From positions 72,935 to 136,934 of the IMG/VR virus record IMGVR_UViG_3300010163_000004: 64,000 nucleotides of DNA; one strand, 5' to 3'. Origin of the DNA: a virus (Duplodnaviria; Heunggongvirae; Uroviricota; Caudoviricetes). The position numbers were made by a program, and so were the translations under genes. Shown here in pieces: positions 2,676-45,803 of the stretch; positions within the stretch are counted from its first letter, which is position 1, and each line of letters opens with the position of its first letter. The notes below the pieces were generated by a model. That model worked only from the letters and a program-made list of their open reading frames with translations, was not told the origin of the DNA and searched no databases.

Positions 2676-3953
2676 TTAAAAACGATAGGTAAAATTTTGT
2701 AATTTTTTCTTGTAAGGTTCCCAAGGCTCTCCATTAAGTAACTTTCGTAAGTTATCTACATCAATAGTAACATACTCGCTCTTTTGATGAGACTTCTTAA
2801 ACCATTCTTGTTCAACGGTATCTTCCAGCACTAATGTGAATATTTCAGAGTATTTAGAACCTTCTTTTCTAATGACCCTACCAGCGGCTTGAGTGCTTTT
2901 TGTGCTACTAGAGTCAACTCCAAGCATTATCCCAACCGATAGACCAGGACAATCAAAACCTTCAATAGCCAATTTACAGCTATTAATCACGCCCTTGTCT
3001 AGTAGGGCGAACTCCTCAAGTGTAATTCTGTTTTGTTTTTTACTTTCTTTGCCAGTGTAAACATATCCTACTCCTATCTTCTCTGCCATTGCAGTATTAG
3101 CAGAGAATGTAATAATTTTCTTGTCTGCTCTATGAGCAATAATCTCCCTAGCTACTTCCAATTTAGCCGGATGATTATGGATAAACTTTTTTCTAGCTTG
3201 TAACGCTCTCATAAAAGCCGTAGAATGAAAGGTAATCTGCTTCAAAGCATTTGACAGCTCAGCTTTATCCGAACTACTACAAATCTGGTTTCTGTAATTA
3301 AGCCTATTTCTGAGGCCGTCTTTACCAACCATACTCATTGCGAGTCCAAAATCAAAGTTAAAGAATTCAAAATGTCTTATAAATTCCCTATTTTGCTCTC
3401 GATAGCTTTCGATGTCTTCTGCTGTGATAATTACTTGATATTCAGTAAAATCAGATACCCAACCATTGGCTTTGGCTACTTCAATAGTTACACTATCAAC
3501 TACAGGGCAATATTTCTCAACTATAGTATGTCTACCATCAAGTCTTTCCAGAGTAGCAGTTAGTCCAAGAATTAACTTGTATTTAACCTTACTAAATACA
3601 AATTGTAAAGTCTCAGCAGCAGTCCTATGGATTTCATCAATGATTAAAAAGTCACATTCGTATCCATTCTTTGCTGTAGTATTTACAACTTGTACCTCTG
3701 TATTTAACCCTAGACCTTCCTTATCTAATATATCTATCCACTGATTCTTCAAAAGTTCTGTGGGGACTACTATCAATGCTCTAATAGTAGGATATTTAGA
3801 TAGAACAGCCTTTAAACAATTAATAGCACACCGTGTTTTACCAAAGCCTGTACAGGCTTCTATAGTGCCTTTTCCCTTATGTAATAACCAGGCTCTCTTA
3901 CACTGCTCCTGCCGCTCGTCACGAGTAACAGGAGTAAAGAGGTCTTTCATCAA
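2676..3953 (-). CDS. Superfamily 2 DNA/RNA helicase (DEAH-like)
   Basis: 425 aa. Motif I ACTGFGKT, motif II IIDEIH, motif III LGLTATLER, motif VI QAAGRVIRK. Confidence 0.8.
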   Translation of the reverse strand: MMKDLFTPVTRDERQEQCKRAWLLHKGKGTIEACTGFGKTRCAINCLKAVLSKYPTIRALIVVPTELLKNQWIDILDKEGLGLNTEVQVVNTTAKNGYECDFLIIDEIHRTAAETLQFVFSKVKYKLILGLTATLERLDGRHTIVEKYCPVVDSVTIEVAKANGWVSDFTEYQVIITAEDIESYREQNREFIRHFEFFNFDFGLAMSMVGKDGLRNRLNYRNQICSSSDKAELSNALKQITFHSTAFMRALQARKKFIHNHPAKLEVAREIIAHRADKKIITFSANTAMAEKIGVGYVYTGKESKKQNRITLEEFALLDKGVINSCKLAIEGFDCPGLSVGIMLGVDSSSTKSTQAAGRVIRKEGSKYSEIFTLVLEDTVEQEWFKKSHQKSEYVTIDVDNLRKLLNGEPWEPYKKKLQNFTYRF

Positions 3954-12703: not shown

Positions 12704-13165
12704 CTATAATTTCTTTATGCAATTTTCTTTCTTAGTTTCATATTCCTGGCTGGCCTCTCTAGCTAACCTATCTGCGAGATTATTCATCTGAGAAAAGAAG
12801 TCTGAACTTGAAGTATGTCCTTTTACCCAACAAAAATCTATGTTAGAACAAAATTGTTTTGCCTTATCTAAGACTTTGTCATATAAACTCCATAACTTTA
12901 TATTCTTCTTTCTTTTCCATCCTTTAGTAGTACATCCTATAACGTACTGAGAATCTGAGTAAACAGTCAGAAATTCGATTTTACGACTTACTGCATTTAG
13001 AGCATAAATTACTGCTAACAACTCACATTTATTATTAGTAGTATTAGGAATCATTTTACTAAATTCATAGACTTTTTTACCATCTATTACGAACACAATC
13101 CCTATTCCTCCTGTGTTTCTAGAGGGACTAAAAGCTCCATCAGTAAAGACCTCTAGTCTACTCAT
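12704..13165 (-). CDS. rnhA: ribonuclease H (RNase HI). The ORF ends with TAG, followed 5 codons later by an in-frame TAA.
   Basis: 153 aa. VFTDGA...NNKCELLAVIYAL...TVYSDSQYV...WVKGH...LADRLA are the RNase H catalytic motifs. Confidence 0.85.
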   Translation of the reverse strand: MSRLEVFTDGAFSPSRNTGGIGIVFVIDGKKVYEFSKMIPNTTNNKCELLAVIYALNAVSRKIEFLTVYSDSQYVIGCTTKGWKRKKNIKLWSLYDKVLDKAKQFCSNIDFCWVKGHTSSSDFFSQMNNLADRLAREASQEYETKKENCIKKL

Positions 13166-13944: not shown

Positions 13945-14230
13945 GATTCTGTAAGTTGGACAACTTATCAGTTCTTACACTAACTAGTAGTCCACCCTTA
14001 CGTAAGTTGTAACTAAGTTTAATTCCGCAATGATTTAGAATTTCAATAAATTCTCTCAACGCGCTTCCCTTTAACACATTTCTGTAGACTAGTTTCTGAC
14101 CATCTTGATATCCTGCTCGATAGTATTCATTCGCAACATCAGAAATAAGCCATCGCTTAATAGGAGATACCCTACTTAAGAGTTCATTGACTCTGGTTGC
14201 GATAAAATCCATATTACCGAATACTATCAA
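13889..14230 (-). CDS. hypothetical protein (113 aa)
   Basis: ORF track. Confidence 0.5.
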   Translation of the reverse strand: MIVFGNMDFIATRVNELLSRVSPIKRWLISDVANEYYRAGYQDGQKLVYRNVLKGSALREFIEILNHCGIKLSYNLRKGGLLVSVRTDKLSNLQNLVNCYKNEQNKKNGPDKG

Positions 14231-14389
14231 TTACAAGACTATCTACACTTAGAGTGTTTGTACTCATTGTGTCAGCAACTTCTTTAACGATAGAATCGTT
14301 TTCTGGAGCCTGAGTTTTTGTATTACCTGCACAAGCAGACATCAGCGCAACCATTCCAAAAAGCAATAGTACTTTCTTCATTTTCTTAA

Positions 14390-14855
14390 TTTAAATTAGT
14401 TAATAATCATTTTATCCATCAAAAAAAAGAGTGGTTCCAGTATCTGTGCTTCACCAGATACCTTCCCCACTCCTATCACCCCGAAGAGCTTGTACCATTA
14501 TTAGGTTGGCCAACCTCCCTCTTCATCTTGTTGAGAATTTGGGATAATAGTCACCAAGTTTAAAGATTACTTGTAACTGAAGCAAAAGGCTAGAATCCCC
14601 GAAGGGGTTCCGTAACTCCTTCAACACGTGGTTGACGAGCTATGTAGGAAGCTAACGCGCAGGCAAAGATGAAGCCGTAGTCAAAGACCTAGCTACACTA
14701 ACAAAGACTAAGACAAAGGCTCTCAATTAGAGAGTGAGTTGTAAATTTTTGTGCAGCCAGCGAATAAAGATTAAATCCATGCGGATTTAAAAATATACTG
14801 TTCATAATTATTCCTGTTAAGTATGTTATGTTAGCTTCCTACGGAAGTCCTCTAA
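14390..14855 (-). ncRNA. Candidate structured non-coding RNA (minus sense): two UUCG tetraloop hairpins, several other hairpins and a 13-bp long-range helix
   Basis: Long-range pairing of 14644-14656 (gtaggaagctaac) with 14830-14842 (gttagcttcctac). UUCG loops around 14477-14489 and 14595-14609. Palindrome ggttggccaacc around 14505. No ORF. More GC-rich than surrounding sequence. Confidence 0.4.
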
Positions 14856-15773
14856 TTACTTAGAGGAAGAATCACCTTGTCTCTTGATCTCTTCAAAAGT
14901 ATCCAAGAGATCTTTAGGCAAAGCGATTTTTAGTTTGGAAATATGTTCCATTTCAGAAGTTTTCCAACTATTGAAACGACTTCTCAATTCTCCTAATTCG
15001 GAGGTATATCTGTCGTATCTTGCTTTAAATTCAGCTATCTTTTCACGATACTCTTGTTCTTGAGCGTTAGAAAGTTTGTTAACTTCCTCCTTAAGCTCAG
15101 CTTTAAGAGCATTTAATTCCTTTTCGTAAGAACGATAGGTATCTTGAAGAGACATGAACATATTATCTACTTTTTCTACTTCGATAGTAGGGTTTTGGTA
15201 GTAGAGAATTAAGTCTCTTCCAGAGCCTTCCTTATAGATAGGACAATTCTCAGCTGCATGAACTTCTTTTCGTGCCTTACTAAAGGCTCCTTTTGGATGA
15301 ATATACTTTCCATATGTAGAAGCAAACGCCTCTAATCTTAGGAATTTATTTCTCTTGTTAATATCCCACGACTTTATGATAGTTTCTTCAGTCGGAGAAG
15401 GTAGAGCTTCTGGATACTTAGGCGGCTCTGGCAGCCCTATTCCCTGACTTTCTGCCCAATCTTCAAGTGTAGTAGCAGATACTTTGCCAATCATTCCTTC
15501 TTTCTCTTTGATAGCTTCTCGTACCCAAGCACAGAAACTATTCATGGCAGCAACCTTTTCCAAATCGTCTTTAATAAAGCTAAGGGAATTTTGTCCTGCT
15601 GTCATTAGCTGCTTTTCTCCTCCACCAATAGAGGCCACAGATACTTGAAAGAATCTCACATTATTCAAACGTTCCTGTGCTGCTTGAATCATTTCTTGTG
15701 CGATGTTCGCATAGAAGTTTGCTGACGTAGAAGTCAGTCCTTCATTTCCAAAAAATACACTGTTCATAATCAT
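14856..15773 (-). CDS. hypothetical protein (305 aa, C-terminal coiled coil)
   Basis: ORF track. Confidence 0.6.
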   Translation of the reverse strand: MIMNSVFFGNEGLTSTSANFYANIAQEMIQAAQERLNNVRFFQVSVASIGGGEKQLMTAGQNSLSFIKDDLEKVAAMNSFCAWVREAIKEKEGMIGKVSATTLEDWAESQGIGLPEPPKYPEALPSPTEETIIKSWDINKRNKFLRLEAFASTYGKYIHPKGAFSKARKEVHAAENCPIYKEGSGRDLILYYQNPTIEVEKVDNMFMSLQDTYRSYEKELNALKAELKEEVNKLSNAQEQEYREKIAEFKARYDRYTSELGELRSRFNSWKTSEMEHISKLKIALPKDLLDTFEEIKRQGDSSSK

Positions 15774-15799
15774 TAATTTTTATTTGTTATTTCAATAAG

Positions 15800-15884
15800 T
15801 AGTCCAAGAGGGACTCGAACCCTCACGGGCATTCTGCCCACCGCAGTTTAAGTGCGACTCCTATACCAATTCGGATATTGGACC
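15800..15884 (-). tRNA. tRNA-Leu(UAA), type II (long variable arm)
   Basis: Hand-folded cloverleaf: acceptor GGTCCAA/TTGGACT, anticodon loop CTTAAAC, A73, T-loop GGTTCGAGTCC. Confidence 0.75.
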
Positions 15885-17014: not shown

Positions 17015-19030
17015 TTAGAATTTAATTTTAAATAGTTTATTATTAACTTTAACTACAACCTCATCGTGAGACGTACTAGAGAATCCTAGTCCACTCAACT
17101 GGTTATCATTGTATTCTGCTTTAGCTCTAGAGCCAATAGCTTCGAATACTCTCTTATGATCTTTTTCGAGATCAGGTCTCAGATATTCATTAAAGAATCC
17201 TCGAACTGGGTCAGGATTTTTACATCCATCAATCATGAAGAATAGGTGCTTGTTTCCTATTTCATTACCTTCCCAATAATTTGGGGAATACATGATGCAA
17301 GAAACAGTTTGGAAGCGCATAGTATCAATGCCCCACTCGTTCATAGACTTGTATGAAGTTGCACCTTCAGCAATTACTGGACTTAGGGTTATATTACCAC
17401 TAGAATCCACATTAATAATCGCTACTGTAATATATTTTTTGTCTGGCACCATCTTATCATAGTTGAACTTATGAAGTTCTCCATTGATTTCGATTTCTAC
17501 CTCGAATCCAAAGTCTATGGATTCTCTTTTGCAGAAGTTATGCACCCTTACTACATATCGACCCGATCCGAATCTAGATTGGTCAGCCCAGATAATATTC
17601 TCTACTGCATCTCTAGTTTTACAAGAACCAGCATTCATATCTACATCTAATTTGCCTCCAGATATCCCTCCCTTACATCCAAAATAGATTTCACTACCGT
17701 TAGGTTCTGTTACATGGAGATCAAGATCATCATAGTTAAACCAATGCAGAGAACATCTTAGGAATCCATTTACGTTACCACCTGCTGCTTTTACTTTCTC
17801 CTTGAATGAATCTGCCATAGAGCCATTATACACCCAGGCGAAGTTATTCTTCCATTTGAACAGCTGACCTGCATCAGGGTTCTCTGGAGCAGTTAGGGTA
17901 ACAAAATTAGGAATATGCTTATTCTCAACAAGAATTTGCACATCCTTAGAATGTGGCAATACATTAGTTACAAACTCTGAAATTGAGATTTCAGTAGCTT
18001 TGGTATACTCTTTAGGATTAACCGTTGAGGTCTCTTTTAAAGAGTCAAATATACCTCCCTTCATACGTGCACGAGTATCTCTGTTTACAAATAGTACATC
18101 ATTCACAGAAATATCTTCTACACGAGCATGACGGCGAGGAAGAGCATCAGTTAGCCCAAGCTCCTCAACTTTCTTCTGAGCAGCCTCGATCTGTTTCTTA
18201 GTAATAAGAGCAGTAGGTCTCTTATAGTTAGATGGAGCCATAATGTTCTCATAAGACTTAACAGCTCTTTCTAGGTCTACACCATTACTTAAGTCAATCA
18301 GCAGAGTTCCCATAGCTGTATTTCTAATTTTAGCTATTGGAGATTTGAAGTTAAACCAACAATAGTTAGTGCGGACCTCTGGTGAGAGATTATCGGCCTC
18401 AAGCATAGTTCTTCTGAACTCTTGCAGAGTCTTTAGGAATTCTTCTCCGCGATAGAGATTATTATCCTCTATCAACTCAATTACAGTTTCTACCGCACTT
18501 AGTTTAAGCTCGGAAAGAGAACGTTCAAAGACACTAGCTCTAGCTCTAACATCTCCGCGATAACCTGCGGCAGAGTCGAAATGATGTACTCTCTTGTTGA
18601 ATTTAAACTTGTTAGGAATAGTCACGTACAAGTGAGTCCAAGTTCTAGTAGTTCCATCAGGAAGAAGTTGCACATTATGATCACAACCGTGAAACTCATT
18701 AACACTCTGAATGAATATATCTCCTATTCCAGCTTCCTTAACAAGTTTAGCCAAATCAGATGCGGTCTTTTCATAGCCAGGAGTGTGGACATCATCCCAG
18801 AAGGTTTTCACCTTGTAGGTTTGAGGGTCTATAGCGACTACCTTGCCATAGTGACGTATGAAAGACTTACAAGCATTACAATTATGTTCCTGACGAATTG
18901 TTTCATCTTCAAAGGAGAGGAGATAACTCATCCACAAAAGGTCTTTGTCCACATTAACTACGAATAAATTATCTGCAATCATAGCATTGAAAGCAGACTC
19001 CACATCTTTCTTAAAATCTTTAAAATTCAT
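17015..19030 (-). CDS. large hypothetical protein (671 aa), function not recognised
   Basis: ORF track. Uninterrupted in standard code. No confident motif match. Confidence 0.7.
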   Translation of the reverse strand: MNFKDFKKDVESAFNAMIADNLFVVNVDKDLLWMSYLLSFEDETIRQEHNCNACKSFIRHYGKVVAIDPQTYKVKTFWDDVHTPGYEKTASDLAKLVKEAGIGDIFIQSVNEFHGCDHNVQLLPDGTTRTWTHLYVTIPNKFKFNKRVHHFDSAAGYRGDVRARASVFERSLSELKLSAVETVIELIEDNNLYRGEEFLKTLQEFRRTMLEADNLSPEVRTNYCWFNFKSPIAKIRNTAMGTLLIDLSNGVDLERAVKSYENIMAPSNYKRPTALITKKQIEAAQKKVEELGLTDALPRRHARVEDISVNDVLFVNRDTRARMKGGIFDSLKETSTVNPKEYTKATEISISEFVTNVLPHSKDVQILVENKHIPNFVTLTAPENPDAGQLFKWKNNFAWVYNGSMADSFKEKVKAAGGNVNGFLRCSLHWFNYDDLDLHVTEPNGSEIYFGCKGGISGGKLDVDMNAGSCKTRDAVENIIWADQSRFGSGRYVVRVHNFCKRESIDFGFEVEIEINGELHKFNYDKMVPDKKYITVAIINVDSSGNITLSPVIAEGATSYKSMNEWGIDTMRFQTVSCIMYSPNYWEGNEIGNKHLFFMIDGCKNPDPVRGFFNEYLRPDLEKDHKRVFEAIGSRAKAEYNDNQLSGLGFSSTSHDEVVVKVNNKLFKIKF

Positions 19031-45712: not shown

Positions 45713-45784
45713 TGCCCTATGGTGTAATGGTCAGCACAGATGACTCTAAATCATTTAGTCTGGGTTCGAATCCTAGTAGGGCAA
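45713..45784 (+). tRNA. amber suppressor tRNA (anticodon CUA), derived from tRNA-Gln. Predicted to decode UAG as Gln.
   Basis: Cloverleaf: acceptor TGCCCTA/TAGGGCA (U1-A72), D arm GTGT-AATGGTCA-GCAC, anticodon arm GATGA-CTCTAAA-TCATT, variable TAGT, T arm CTGGG-TTCGAAT-CCTAG, A73. D arm, 8-9, T-loop and discriminator are shared with tRNA-Gln(UUG) at 29745-29815. Confidence 0.85.
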
Positions 45785-45803
45785 CGCCAAAAAATTAATA
45801 GTT

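Follow-up and report, generated by a model that had tools for sequence, protein, structure and literature searches.

A two-domain structured RNA with unpaired hexamer repeats in human-gut phages

The window analyzed here, a 64,000-nt stretch of a tailed-phage sequence (positions 72,935 to 136,934 of IMG/VR record IMGVR_UViG_3300010163_000004), is part of a human-gut phage genome of ~185-190 kb. On its minus strand, from the stop codon of a gene for a 305-aa protein to an intrinsic terminator (14866 to 14421), it encodes an RNA of ~445 nt that is real, selected and structured, a conclusion that we hold with high confidence. The RNA represents a family that is, with near certainty, real and uncatalogued. 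Its fold has two domains, an older 5' domain (14644-14866) and a 3' pseudoknot domain (14421-14587) that is specific to a subclade. A large structured RNA in minus sense had been proposed for this place from the letters alone (the first-pass annotation), and compensatory changes across dozens of distinct homologues bear this out.

Covariation, conservation and catalogue status

Related loci were collected from an IMG/VR search with the 305-aa protein (43 loci), from a metagenome scan with the protein alignment (80 more) and from look-ups of further homologues (ten). Relative loci and contigs carry labels in the style of L001-L188; A1, A8 and A10 are alignments. A single copy of the RNA follows a homologous gene in over 100 contigs of related phages, of which most come from the human gut. 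Where the protein is at least ~51% identical, blastn, nhmmer or the covariance model found exactly one copy directly 3' of the gene in every locus, and in all loci examined, the 305-aa homologue is followed directly by the RNA or its core. It was single-copy per phage in 81 of the 81 loci searched, which provided 21 distinct 3'-domain sequences, or 29 after contigs were added. A weak second covariance match to the 3' domain in L020 (6766-6939, 22.7 bits, E = 2.7e-4) is inside an RNase H-homologous region and was treated as spurious. Extra 19-mer matches in viral contigs (L061, L079 and L091) were unrelated coding DNA.

For the 3' domain, a covariance model was built from 13 diverse copies and a hand-curated structure, and all matches were aligned to it. 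Among the 29 distinct sequences, 97.4% of the cells of this 166-nt domain (pseudoknot included) were paired, against 40-53% with the partners slid by 1-3 columns. Double changes were found in 18 of 50 pairs, compared with 7.8 +/- 1.5 in shuffles (0/500) and at most 8 in the slid controls.

The 5' domain is closed by helix P1, in which 14830-14842 (GUAGGAAGCUAAC) pairs with 14644-14656 (GUUAGCUUCCUAC). A 13-bp long-range helix around about 175 nt had been predicted from the single sequence; it is real and encloses 173 nt. On A8, 98.5% of its cells are paired (26-48% in slid controls), with changes on both sides in 9 of 14 pairs, and divergent copies pair GUAGGAAGUCGGC with GCCGACUUCCUAC, GGUAAGAAACCAGC with GCUGGUUUCUUACC, and GAUGAGAAACCAAC with GUUGGUUUCUCAUC, among others. 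Helix P3 joins 14751-14760 (CUGGCUGCAC) to 14689-14698 (GUGUAGCUAG), with 98.9% of cells paired on A10 (slid controls 19-38%) and both-side changes in 8 of 10 pairs. These P1 and P3 counts lean towards pairing, as the strands were picked at anchored positions among predicted helices; this choice does not, however, account for the variety of pair types in the two helices. Compensatory changes are therefore present in the long-range helix, in several hairpins and in the pseudoknot, and the RNA passes the covariation check that the first-pass annotation had named.

G.U pairs occur in all or most sequences at several positions. Since such invariant or frequent G.U pairs fit the minus strand only, minus is the functional strand, as had been proposed. 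The minimum free energy of this strand has a z-score of -3.2 against shuffled sequence; the plus strand folds well too (z = -4.3). The region is indeed relatively GC-rich, with a GC fraction of 0.42-0.45 at 14500-14800 versus 0.29-0.38 in the flanks (~0.34 around).

The stretch had also been described as free of open reading frames (ORFs), which is correct. Between the ORF of the 305-aa protein (14856-15773, minus) and a downstream lipoprotein ORF (14214-14381, minus) there are ORFs of just 34-38 aa, and each of the six frames is closed by TAA, TGA and TAG. The ORF listing gives the lipoprotein 55 aa, not the 51 aa first reported. A recoded ORF was rejected: read-through of TAG by a tRNA of the window with anticodon CUA opens no frame, because all six frames also contain TAA and TGA. 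The features that had been placed between 14390 and 14855 are there, but these limits need correction, as the RNA starts slightly beyond them (a hairpin covers the stop codon at 14849-14866) and its U-tract ends at 14421.

Membership in named RNA families was tested with the Rfam models, and none was found. The window gave tRNAs only in a cmscan against Rfam 15 at gathering thresholds. The Rfam match that the first-pass annotation had also named as a check was not obtained: nothing matched the RNA at E ≤ 1 among 4227 families, and it is therefore neither GOLLD nor ROOL nor a ribozyme or riboswitch of the catalogue. At E ≤ 10 over 14100-15100, two noise matches (snoZ30a and SCARNA7) were returned, with none to RNase P RNA, group I or II introns, self-cleaving ribozymes or known riboswitch aptamers, and a search of the relatives L038 and L146 (the latter a distant one) likewise gave noise only. 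No tmRNA was found by ARAGORN in the window or in L038, or by Rfam.

The RNA is better conserved than its surroundings. Positions 14400-14600 are locally the best-conserved nucleotides (86-98% identity versus 50-85% for the flanking genes), and 58 nt of the 3' domain are an invariant run among the 15 sequences of A1. The RNA is 79-83% identical where the protein is 72-76% identical, and in L038, with a protein of 58% identity, the 3' part of the RNA is still 91% identical. The RNA travels with the upstream gene and not with the downstream one, because the latter varies (lipoprotein, RNase H or others); in L035, the lipoprotein gene and two more genes are deleted and the RNA is retained. A phage RNase H gene (PF00075), which is next after the RNA in many relatives (L176-L185), is found four genes downstream in the window (12704-13165, minus).

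Architecture of the two domains

All features below refer to the minus strand. In all loci, the RNA either adjoins the stop codon of the 305-aa gene or overlaps it. In the window, hairpin P0 (CCUCUAA-GUAA-UUAGAGG, 14849-14866) covers the last codons and the UAA stop (14856-14858), and a stop-codon hairpin made of other sequences is present in L122, L123, L125, L129, L178, L181, L184 and L185. Inside P1 is P2 (AAAUCC-GCAU-GGAUUU, 14773-14788), a hairpin recognized in the first pass. It is kept with unrelated sequences, such as GAAAUC/GAUUUC, CAGAU/AUCUG or GCGGGG/CCCCGC in relatives, and distant relatives have a P2-like hairpin with the loop UCAAUG. P3 contains a predicted hairpin P3a (CUCUC-UAAUU-GAGAG, 14720-14734), one pair of which covaries (CG to UA in 4 sequences).

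Two clusters of hexamers of the type UCUU(U/A)G are the most characteristic part of the 5' domain. Cluster 1 (CCUUUG-UCUUAG-UCUUUG-UUAG, 14698-14719) lies in the internal loop of P3, and cluster 2 (GUCUUUG-ACUACG-GCUUCA-UCUUUG-CC, 14662-14688), conserved in the whole family and predicted to be unpaired, lies between P3 and the 3' strand of P1. Three of the 15 GTCTTWG sites of the window are within 33 nt (14682-14714). The hexamers are invariant in the close family, and GTCTT is invariant in A1. Each RNA has three to nine of them, including variants such as CCUUUG, UCCUUG and GCUUUU. In 17 sequences, the predicted unpaired fraction was 0.56 for hexamer positions versus 0.36 for the rest of the domain. 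The RNA therefore has what is expected of a protein sponge, several predicted-accessible copies of one short motif on a structured scaffold. The copy number of cluster 1 shifts by clean 6-nt indels in L016, L010, L032 and L028, among otherwise near-identical phages, which suggests slippage together with tolerance of, or selection on, repeat number. Base-pairing targets were sought as well: a 13-mer at 17933 was the best complement but was rejected, as relatives do not conserve it, and the 5' untranslated region (UTR) of the 305-aa gene itself contains no complement to the hexamers.

The 5' domain reaches further than the rest of the RNA. In distant phages, with a protein of only 35-40% identity and including a 546-kb contig, a conserved RNA of ~230 nt is found in the same place. 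It begins with a two-tier hairpin; then come the 5' strand of a long-range helix, a P3-like hairpin, a hexamer run (for example CCGGUCUUUGACUUUGCUUUUGUCCUUGUCUUUGUCC) and a further hairpin, and last the 3' strand of the long-range helix. RNAalifold reports compensatory changes in 18 of 26 predicted pairs, and the long-range helix covaries by eye. This core ends ~25 nt upstream of the ATG of the next gene and has no terminator of its own.

By nhmmer, only the hexamers link the close subfamily to the distant one, and their offset from the gene is the same in both. With a sub-profile of cluster 2, nearly all distant loci are matched at the syntenic position (E of 8e-5 to 0.7); elsewhere it gave two far weaker matches, both in L137 (E = 1.9 and 8.2). 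The place where hexamers are densest within a locus is 148-193 nt past the end of the gene in 33 of 45 distant loci. The 3'-domain covariance model found nothing in the distant relatives, and the 3' domain is therefore clade-specific. The P1-closed hexamer domain is retained behind the homologous gene at 35-40% protein identity, where the 3' domain is missing; thus, the helix-clamped hexamer domain is the ancestral core, to which the subclade of the window added the pseudoknot domain and its terminator. The ~230-nt RNA was seen directly after the 305-aa homologue in L172 (3886-4130 of the 546,475-bp contig ERZ791810 NODE-1) and also in L130-L175; it is absent from Rfam, too.

The pseudoknot of the 3' domain pairs UUGCUUC (14579-14585; GUGCUUC in most of the divergent members) with GAAGCA (14447-14452; GAAGCA(C)) in the loop of the terminator hairpin He. 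Two double compensatory changes maintain it in L182/L183 (GUACGUC with GACGUAC), a paired insertion in L125 (GUGCUUUC with GAAAGCAC) and a G.U in L177.

Four further hairpins or helices precede the terminator. Ha (14549-14578) has a conserved 9-nt loop, AAUCUUUAA, on a stem that changes from CAAGU/ACUUG to CUCGU/ACGAG or CAGGU/ACCUG. Hb (14517-14543), a predicted pairing with CCC...GGG closing the almost invariant AAAUUCUCAACAAGAUGAAGA, is nearly unchanged in the 29 distinct sequences (one C-G to U.G change). Hc (14490-14513) pairs UUGGCCA with UGG(U)ACAA around the conserved loop ACCUAAUAA; two of its pairs have 10 and 15 double changes, and GGCCA/UGG(U)AC is replaced by GGCAU/AUG(U)AC, GACUA/UAG(U)AC or GGCGG/CCG(U)AC. 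The palindromic hairpin GGUUGGCCAACC of the first-pass annotation was mis-assigned, since covariation favours Hc in its place. The CUC-UUCG-GGG hairpin is present as Hd (GCUC-UUCG-GGGU, 14478-14489), in which 3 of 4 pairs covary and the loop is UUCG or, in relatives, GNRA (GAAA, GCAA).

He (14421-14473) is a two-tier intrinsic terminator hairpin followed by U8 (14421-14428), with covariation in 9 of 15 pairs. The outer stem is GAGUGG/CCACUC, and the GUAUCUG...CAGAUAC hairpin noticed earlier, within 14428-14473, is the inner one. A GC-containing stem with a U-tract, as is typical of intrinsic terminators, accounts for the last 50 nt only. A simple terminator scanner misses He because its stem is two-tiered. 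Nearly all copies have a run of 5-10 U after the stem, interrupted in L121, L182/L183 and L184.

Two optional hairpins are found between P1 and the pseudoknot. P5 (UAGCUC..CAAC-loop-GUUG..GAGUUA, 14613-14642), with one covarying pair (CG 8, UA 6), is missing from L121, L122, L123, L125 and L129. P6 (GGAACCCC-UUCG-GGGAUUCU, 14592-14611) is the CCCC-UUCG-GGG hairpin of the first pass. It exists, and three of its pairs covary, but it is dispensable, being missing from divergent members, and it marks an insertion site. L038 (5172-5452) and L177 (~3670-3945) have an insert of ~280 nt instead of P6, closed by a 25-bp helix (GUAAUCGUAAAAUAAUUUCUUAUAA / UUAUAAGAAAUUAUUUUGCGAUUAU). The insert may be a mobile insertion, similar to a MITE, or an additional domain of the RNA. 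It contains a T-arm-like GGUUUGAAUCC, and this weak tRNA match (E = 0.54) was all that was found for a tRNA or tmRNA in the L038 insert, an assignment that we rejected.

Possible functions

Short, conserved repeats that stay unpaired on a selected fold are what one typically sees in RNAs to which one protein binds in several copies. On this ground we tentatively favour, as the best of several readings and at less than even probability, a 3'UTR-borne multivalent docking platform for a single-strand RNA-binding protein. The RNA would be made as a 3' extension of the 305-aa gene transcript and end at its own intrinsic terminator; in the simplest case, tRNA-Leu, the 305-aa gene, the structured RNA and the terminator would form one transcription unit. 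The unpaired hexamer clusters would dock a protein that binds single-stranded pyrimidine-rich RNA, and the RNA would sequester or recruit this protein during infection. The pseudoknot-locked terminator would provide a defined, nuclease-resistant 3' end. Candidates for this partner would be a cold-shock-domain protein of the host, NusB-S10 (the pair that reads boxA), an RRM-1 protein or the 305-aa protein of the phage itself.

Some of these candidates can be compared with the hexamers. A cold-shock domain has a footprint of 6-7 nt, which fits the 6-nt register. The CspB protein of B. subtilis prefers GTCTTTG/T (PMC1904285; a consensus measured on DNA and with a Firmicute protein), and each RNA contains two to three exact copies of GUCUUUG. 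In Bacteroides there is a single cold-shock protein, besides RRM-1 proteins whose ligand is single-stranded RNA (PMC13370968, PMC11697453). The boxA element read by NusB-S10 is UGCUCUUUA or CGCUCUUA (PMC2724277). The unpaired pyrimidine-rich core of the RNA, with GUCUUUG, GUCUUAG and the Ha loop (AAUCUUUAAAC), resembles the boxA of lambda nut sites and rrn leaders, and as in nutR, the hexamers are downstream of a gene and upstream of a terminator. Against the boxA consensus (U/C)GCUCUU(U)A, which is not from Bacteroidetes, the UCUU(U)A/G core alone matches, and the leading GC is absent. Moreover, the RNA has several copies instead of one, there is no adjacent boxB-like hairpin, and no N-like protein is known.

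A helical scaffold that shows several short unpaired copies of a motif is also a feature of the sponge RNAs CsrB/RsmZ (GGA repeats) and 6S RNA. In contrast to CsrB/RsmZ, the motif here is UCUU(U/A)G and not GGA, and it is displayed in linear single-stranded runs with 6-nt spacing and not in hairpin loops. Bacteroides lacks CsrA (PMC13370968).

Several observations weigh against a docking platform. The likeness to CspB and boxA sites extends over 5-7 nt and concerns proteins of other bacteria, so that it is a lead and not a test. No gene for a cold-shock-domain or RRM protein was found in the 64-kb window, and a genome scan for the host returned just mis-binned phage contigs. The position of the distant cores shortly before the next ATG, with no terminator, fits cis-regulation as well as action in trans. 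The lean of the P1 and P3 counts towards pairing belongs here, too. Finally, the very high conservation of the 3' domain exceeds the need of a mere 3'-end cap and suggests a second specific interaction; it is left unaccounted for by any of the readings ranked here.

A wider version of the docking platform appears improbable to us, if worth stating. It would see an ancient RNA device common to gut jumbo phages and megaphages, from the ~190-kb clade to 546-kb contigs, in which the helix-clamped UCUUUG array captures or recruits a host single-strand RNA-binding factor (cold-shock protein, NusB-S10 or RRM-1 chaperone) and so reprograms host RNA metabolism or transcription elongation; the subclade of the window would have fused a new pseudoknotted domain to it. 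If true, this would be an RNA-based host-takeover tool of a kind undescribed for Bacteroidota phages. To our knowledge, Hfq is lacking in Bacteroides, and little is understood of post-transcriptional control there. If confirmed, a phage RNA directed at a single-strand RNA-binding protein would be a direct handle on this control.

The main alternative, with about the same low probability as the ancient device, is a purely cis-acting 3'UTR. The RNA would then be a barrier or processing module that stabilizes the tRNA-Leu/305-aa transcript against 3'-5' exonucleases, or an RNase cleavage mark, with no partner in trans. This would agree with the constant start of the RNA at the stop codon of the same gene (spanned by P0), with the strong terminator whose loop is locked by the pseudoknot, and with our failure to find an RNA promoter of its own. 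No conserved Bacteroidetes-type promoter was present within 260 nt upstream of the RNA, and a sigma-70 scan stayed at chance level; TAnnTTTG in the window and TAnnTTCG in L002 were rejected as promoter elements, being missing from other family members checked. However, an exonuclease barrier needs one stable hairpin. A 445-nt fold of two domains, invariant unpaired loops and hexamers kept at 35-95% protein identity would not be explained, and distant relatives hold the core without a terminator.

Somewhat less probable still, the 3' domain could be a riboswitch-like or factor-dependent attenuator, with an aptamer-like fold that decides between stop and read-through into the downstream genes. 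Riboswitches are known from phages, and the layout would be fitting: the junctions and loops are highly conserved over ~110 nt, and a pseudoknot is followed by a terminator, with a gene on the same strand 40-60 nt further on. Yet the gene to be controlled varies (here it encodes a lipoprotein, in relatives RNase H or other products, and L035 has lost three genes), and no alternative antiterminator pairing was seen for the terminator stem. The pseudoknot occupies the terminator loop and is no competitor of the stem, Rfam gave no riboswitch match, and the older 5' domain would remain without explanation.

We consider it quite unlikely that the RNA is a large catalytic or self-assembling molecule like orphan ribozymes or the GOLLD/ROOL/OLE class. 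Its size, multi-domain fold, pseudoknot and near-invariant unpaired nucleotides are traits of large functional RNAs, and it is borne by a phage with a tRNA-rich genome. GOLLD/ROOL-type RNAs have ~580-800 nt, versus 445 nt here. With GOLLD (RF01998), ROOL (RF03087) and the OLE/raiA type, the RNA shares a length of several hundred nucleotides, multiple domains, covarying pseudoknots and tRNA-carrying phages. It differs in having no match in sequence or structure, in being fixed to the 3' end of one protein gene and in its tandem unpaired hexamers. Unlike GOLLD/ROOL, it appears to have gut jumbo phages of the Bacteroidales type as its host range. There was no Rfam ribozyme or large-RNA match even at E ≤ 10, no conserved cleavage-site signature was seen, and distant relatives retain the simple hexamer domain only.

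It is very improbable that the hexamers encode a small hydrophobic, Val-Phe/Val-Leu-rich peptide, the RNA being a type I toxin-like structured mRNA (or, as a variant, containing an ORF through TAG read-through). The GUCUUU frame, which reads VFDYGFIFACALASY, is open in all members, indels are multiples of 6 and the window has a tRNA with anticodon CUA; but an open frame is trivial for a repeat that contains no stop codon, there is no ATG or other conserved start codon, and the frame is broken by TAA, TGA and TAG (TAG and then TAA directly in L120). The window has clusters 1 and 2 in different frames, the frame is not maintained further downstream, and a 35-aa ATG ORF and a 16-aa MKREVG ORF are not conserved (ATG to ACG in L035, a stop after 6 codons in L121).

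Equally remote, and already contradicted by the strand-specific covariation, is the idea that the stretch acts as DNA (as origin iterons, or as a packaging site) or amounts to no more than chance or common terminator hairpins: short tandem and inverted repeats are typical of origins too and the plus strand also folds well (z-score above), but G.U-specific covariation works on one strand only, compensatory changes maintain the pseudoknot and the long-range helices, six-base repeats are too short for iterons, gene orientation does not switch, and the cumulative GC skew keeps falling except for a small local rise at ~14500-14900.

Taken by kind, the RNA would be a new family among the large phage-borne structured RNAs, with a 5' half that resembles protein-sponge RNAs. 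A covariation-based study of human gut intergenic regions in IMG/VR listed 10,006 candidate structured RNAs, many of them terminator-linked or cis-regulatory (PMC10690425; Fremin, Bhatt and Kyrpides 2023). The RNA may be among these unnamed candidates; the sections consulted make no mention of an RNA with two domains, hexamer repeats and a pseudoknot to a terminator loop.

RNAs above 400 nt with a complex fold are rare and have historically been ribozymes or cores of ribonucleoprotein machines. The present one is notable for its size, its unusually clean covariation, the pseudoknot and the reach of its core into megaphage-sized genomes. For probing, pull-downs and structure determination, both the hexamer array and the 166-nt pseudoknot domain have the advantage of being small and well defined.

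The upstream gene, the clade and the tRNAs

The neighbouring genes of the RNA locus are all on the minus strand. The 305-aa protein has 472 homologues in metagenomes and contains a strongly conserved basic motif, FASTYGKYIHPKGAFSKARK. Its AlphaFold2 model (pLDDT 88) is a long helical coiled coil with small beta elements, for which Foldseek gave no match below E = 0.03 in the PDB. Pfam and PHROGs returned nothing on its function, and tblastn against GenBank phages found unannotated records only. Some homologues bear a precomputed Pfam tag, PF27695, which our Pfam search did not reproduce.

The clade is widespread in human gut metagenomes, as single protein clusters of the neighbouring gene have 500-700 member sequences. 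The sole relative of the phage in GenBank is MT836666, an unannotated 25-kb fragment. Whole genomes of the clade have been deposited as, or inside, metagenome-assembled genomes (L186-L188), one of them as a 186,052-bp single-contig entry labelled Bacteroides sp. HRGM_Genome_0403. Others are contigs in bins labelled Gastranaerophilales and Clostridium. All of these are probably binning artefacts, and the labels are unfit as host assignments.

Proximity to tRNA genes had been pointed out in the first pass. A tRNA-Leu(UAA) gene (15799-15884) is indeed nearby, at a measured 944 nt where ~900 nt had been given, and ends 25 nt before the ATG of the 305-aa gene. What constantly accompanies the RNA, however, is not tRNAs as such but the 305-aa gene, with the RNA right at its stop codon in every locus. 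The 64 kb contain 22 tRNA genes, all between 15799 and 45785.

The only plus-strand tRNA of the window (45713-45785) has the anticodon CUA (label Pyl in ARAGORN) and is likely an amber suppressor. Among 42 long ORFs of the window, 4 end with TAG, 22 with TAA and 16 with TGA, and part of the phage genome may read TAG as sense. The tRNA set also includes a tRNA-Tyr with the unusual anticodon AUA (26622-26704), two tRNA-Tyr(GUA), two tRNA-Met and two tRNA-Leu(UAA).

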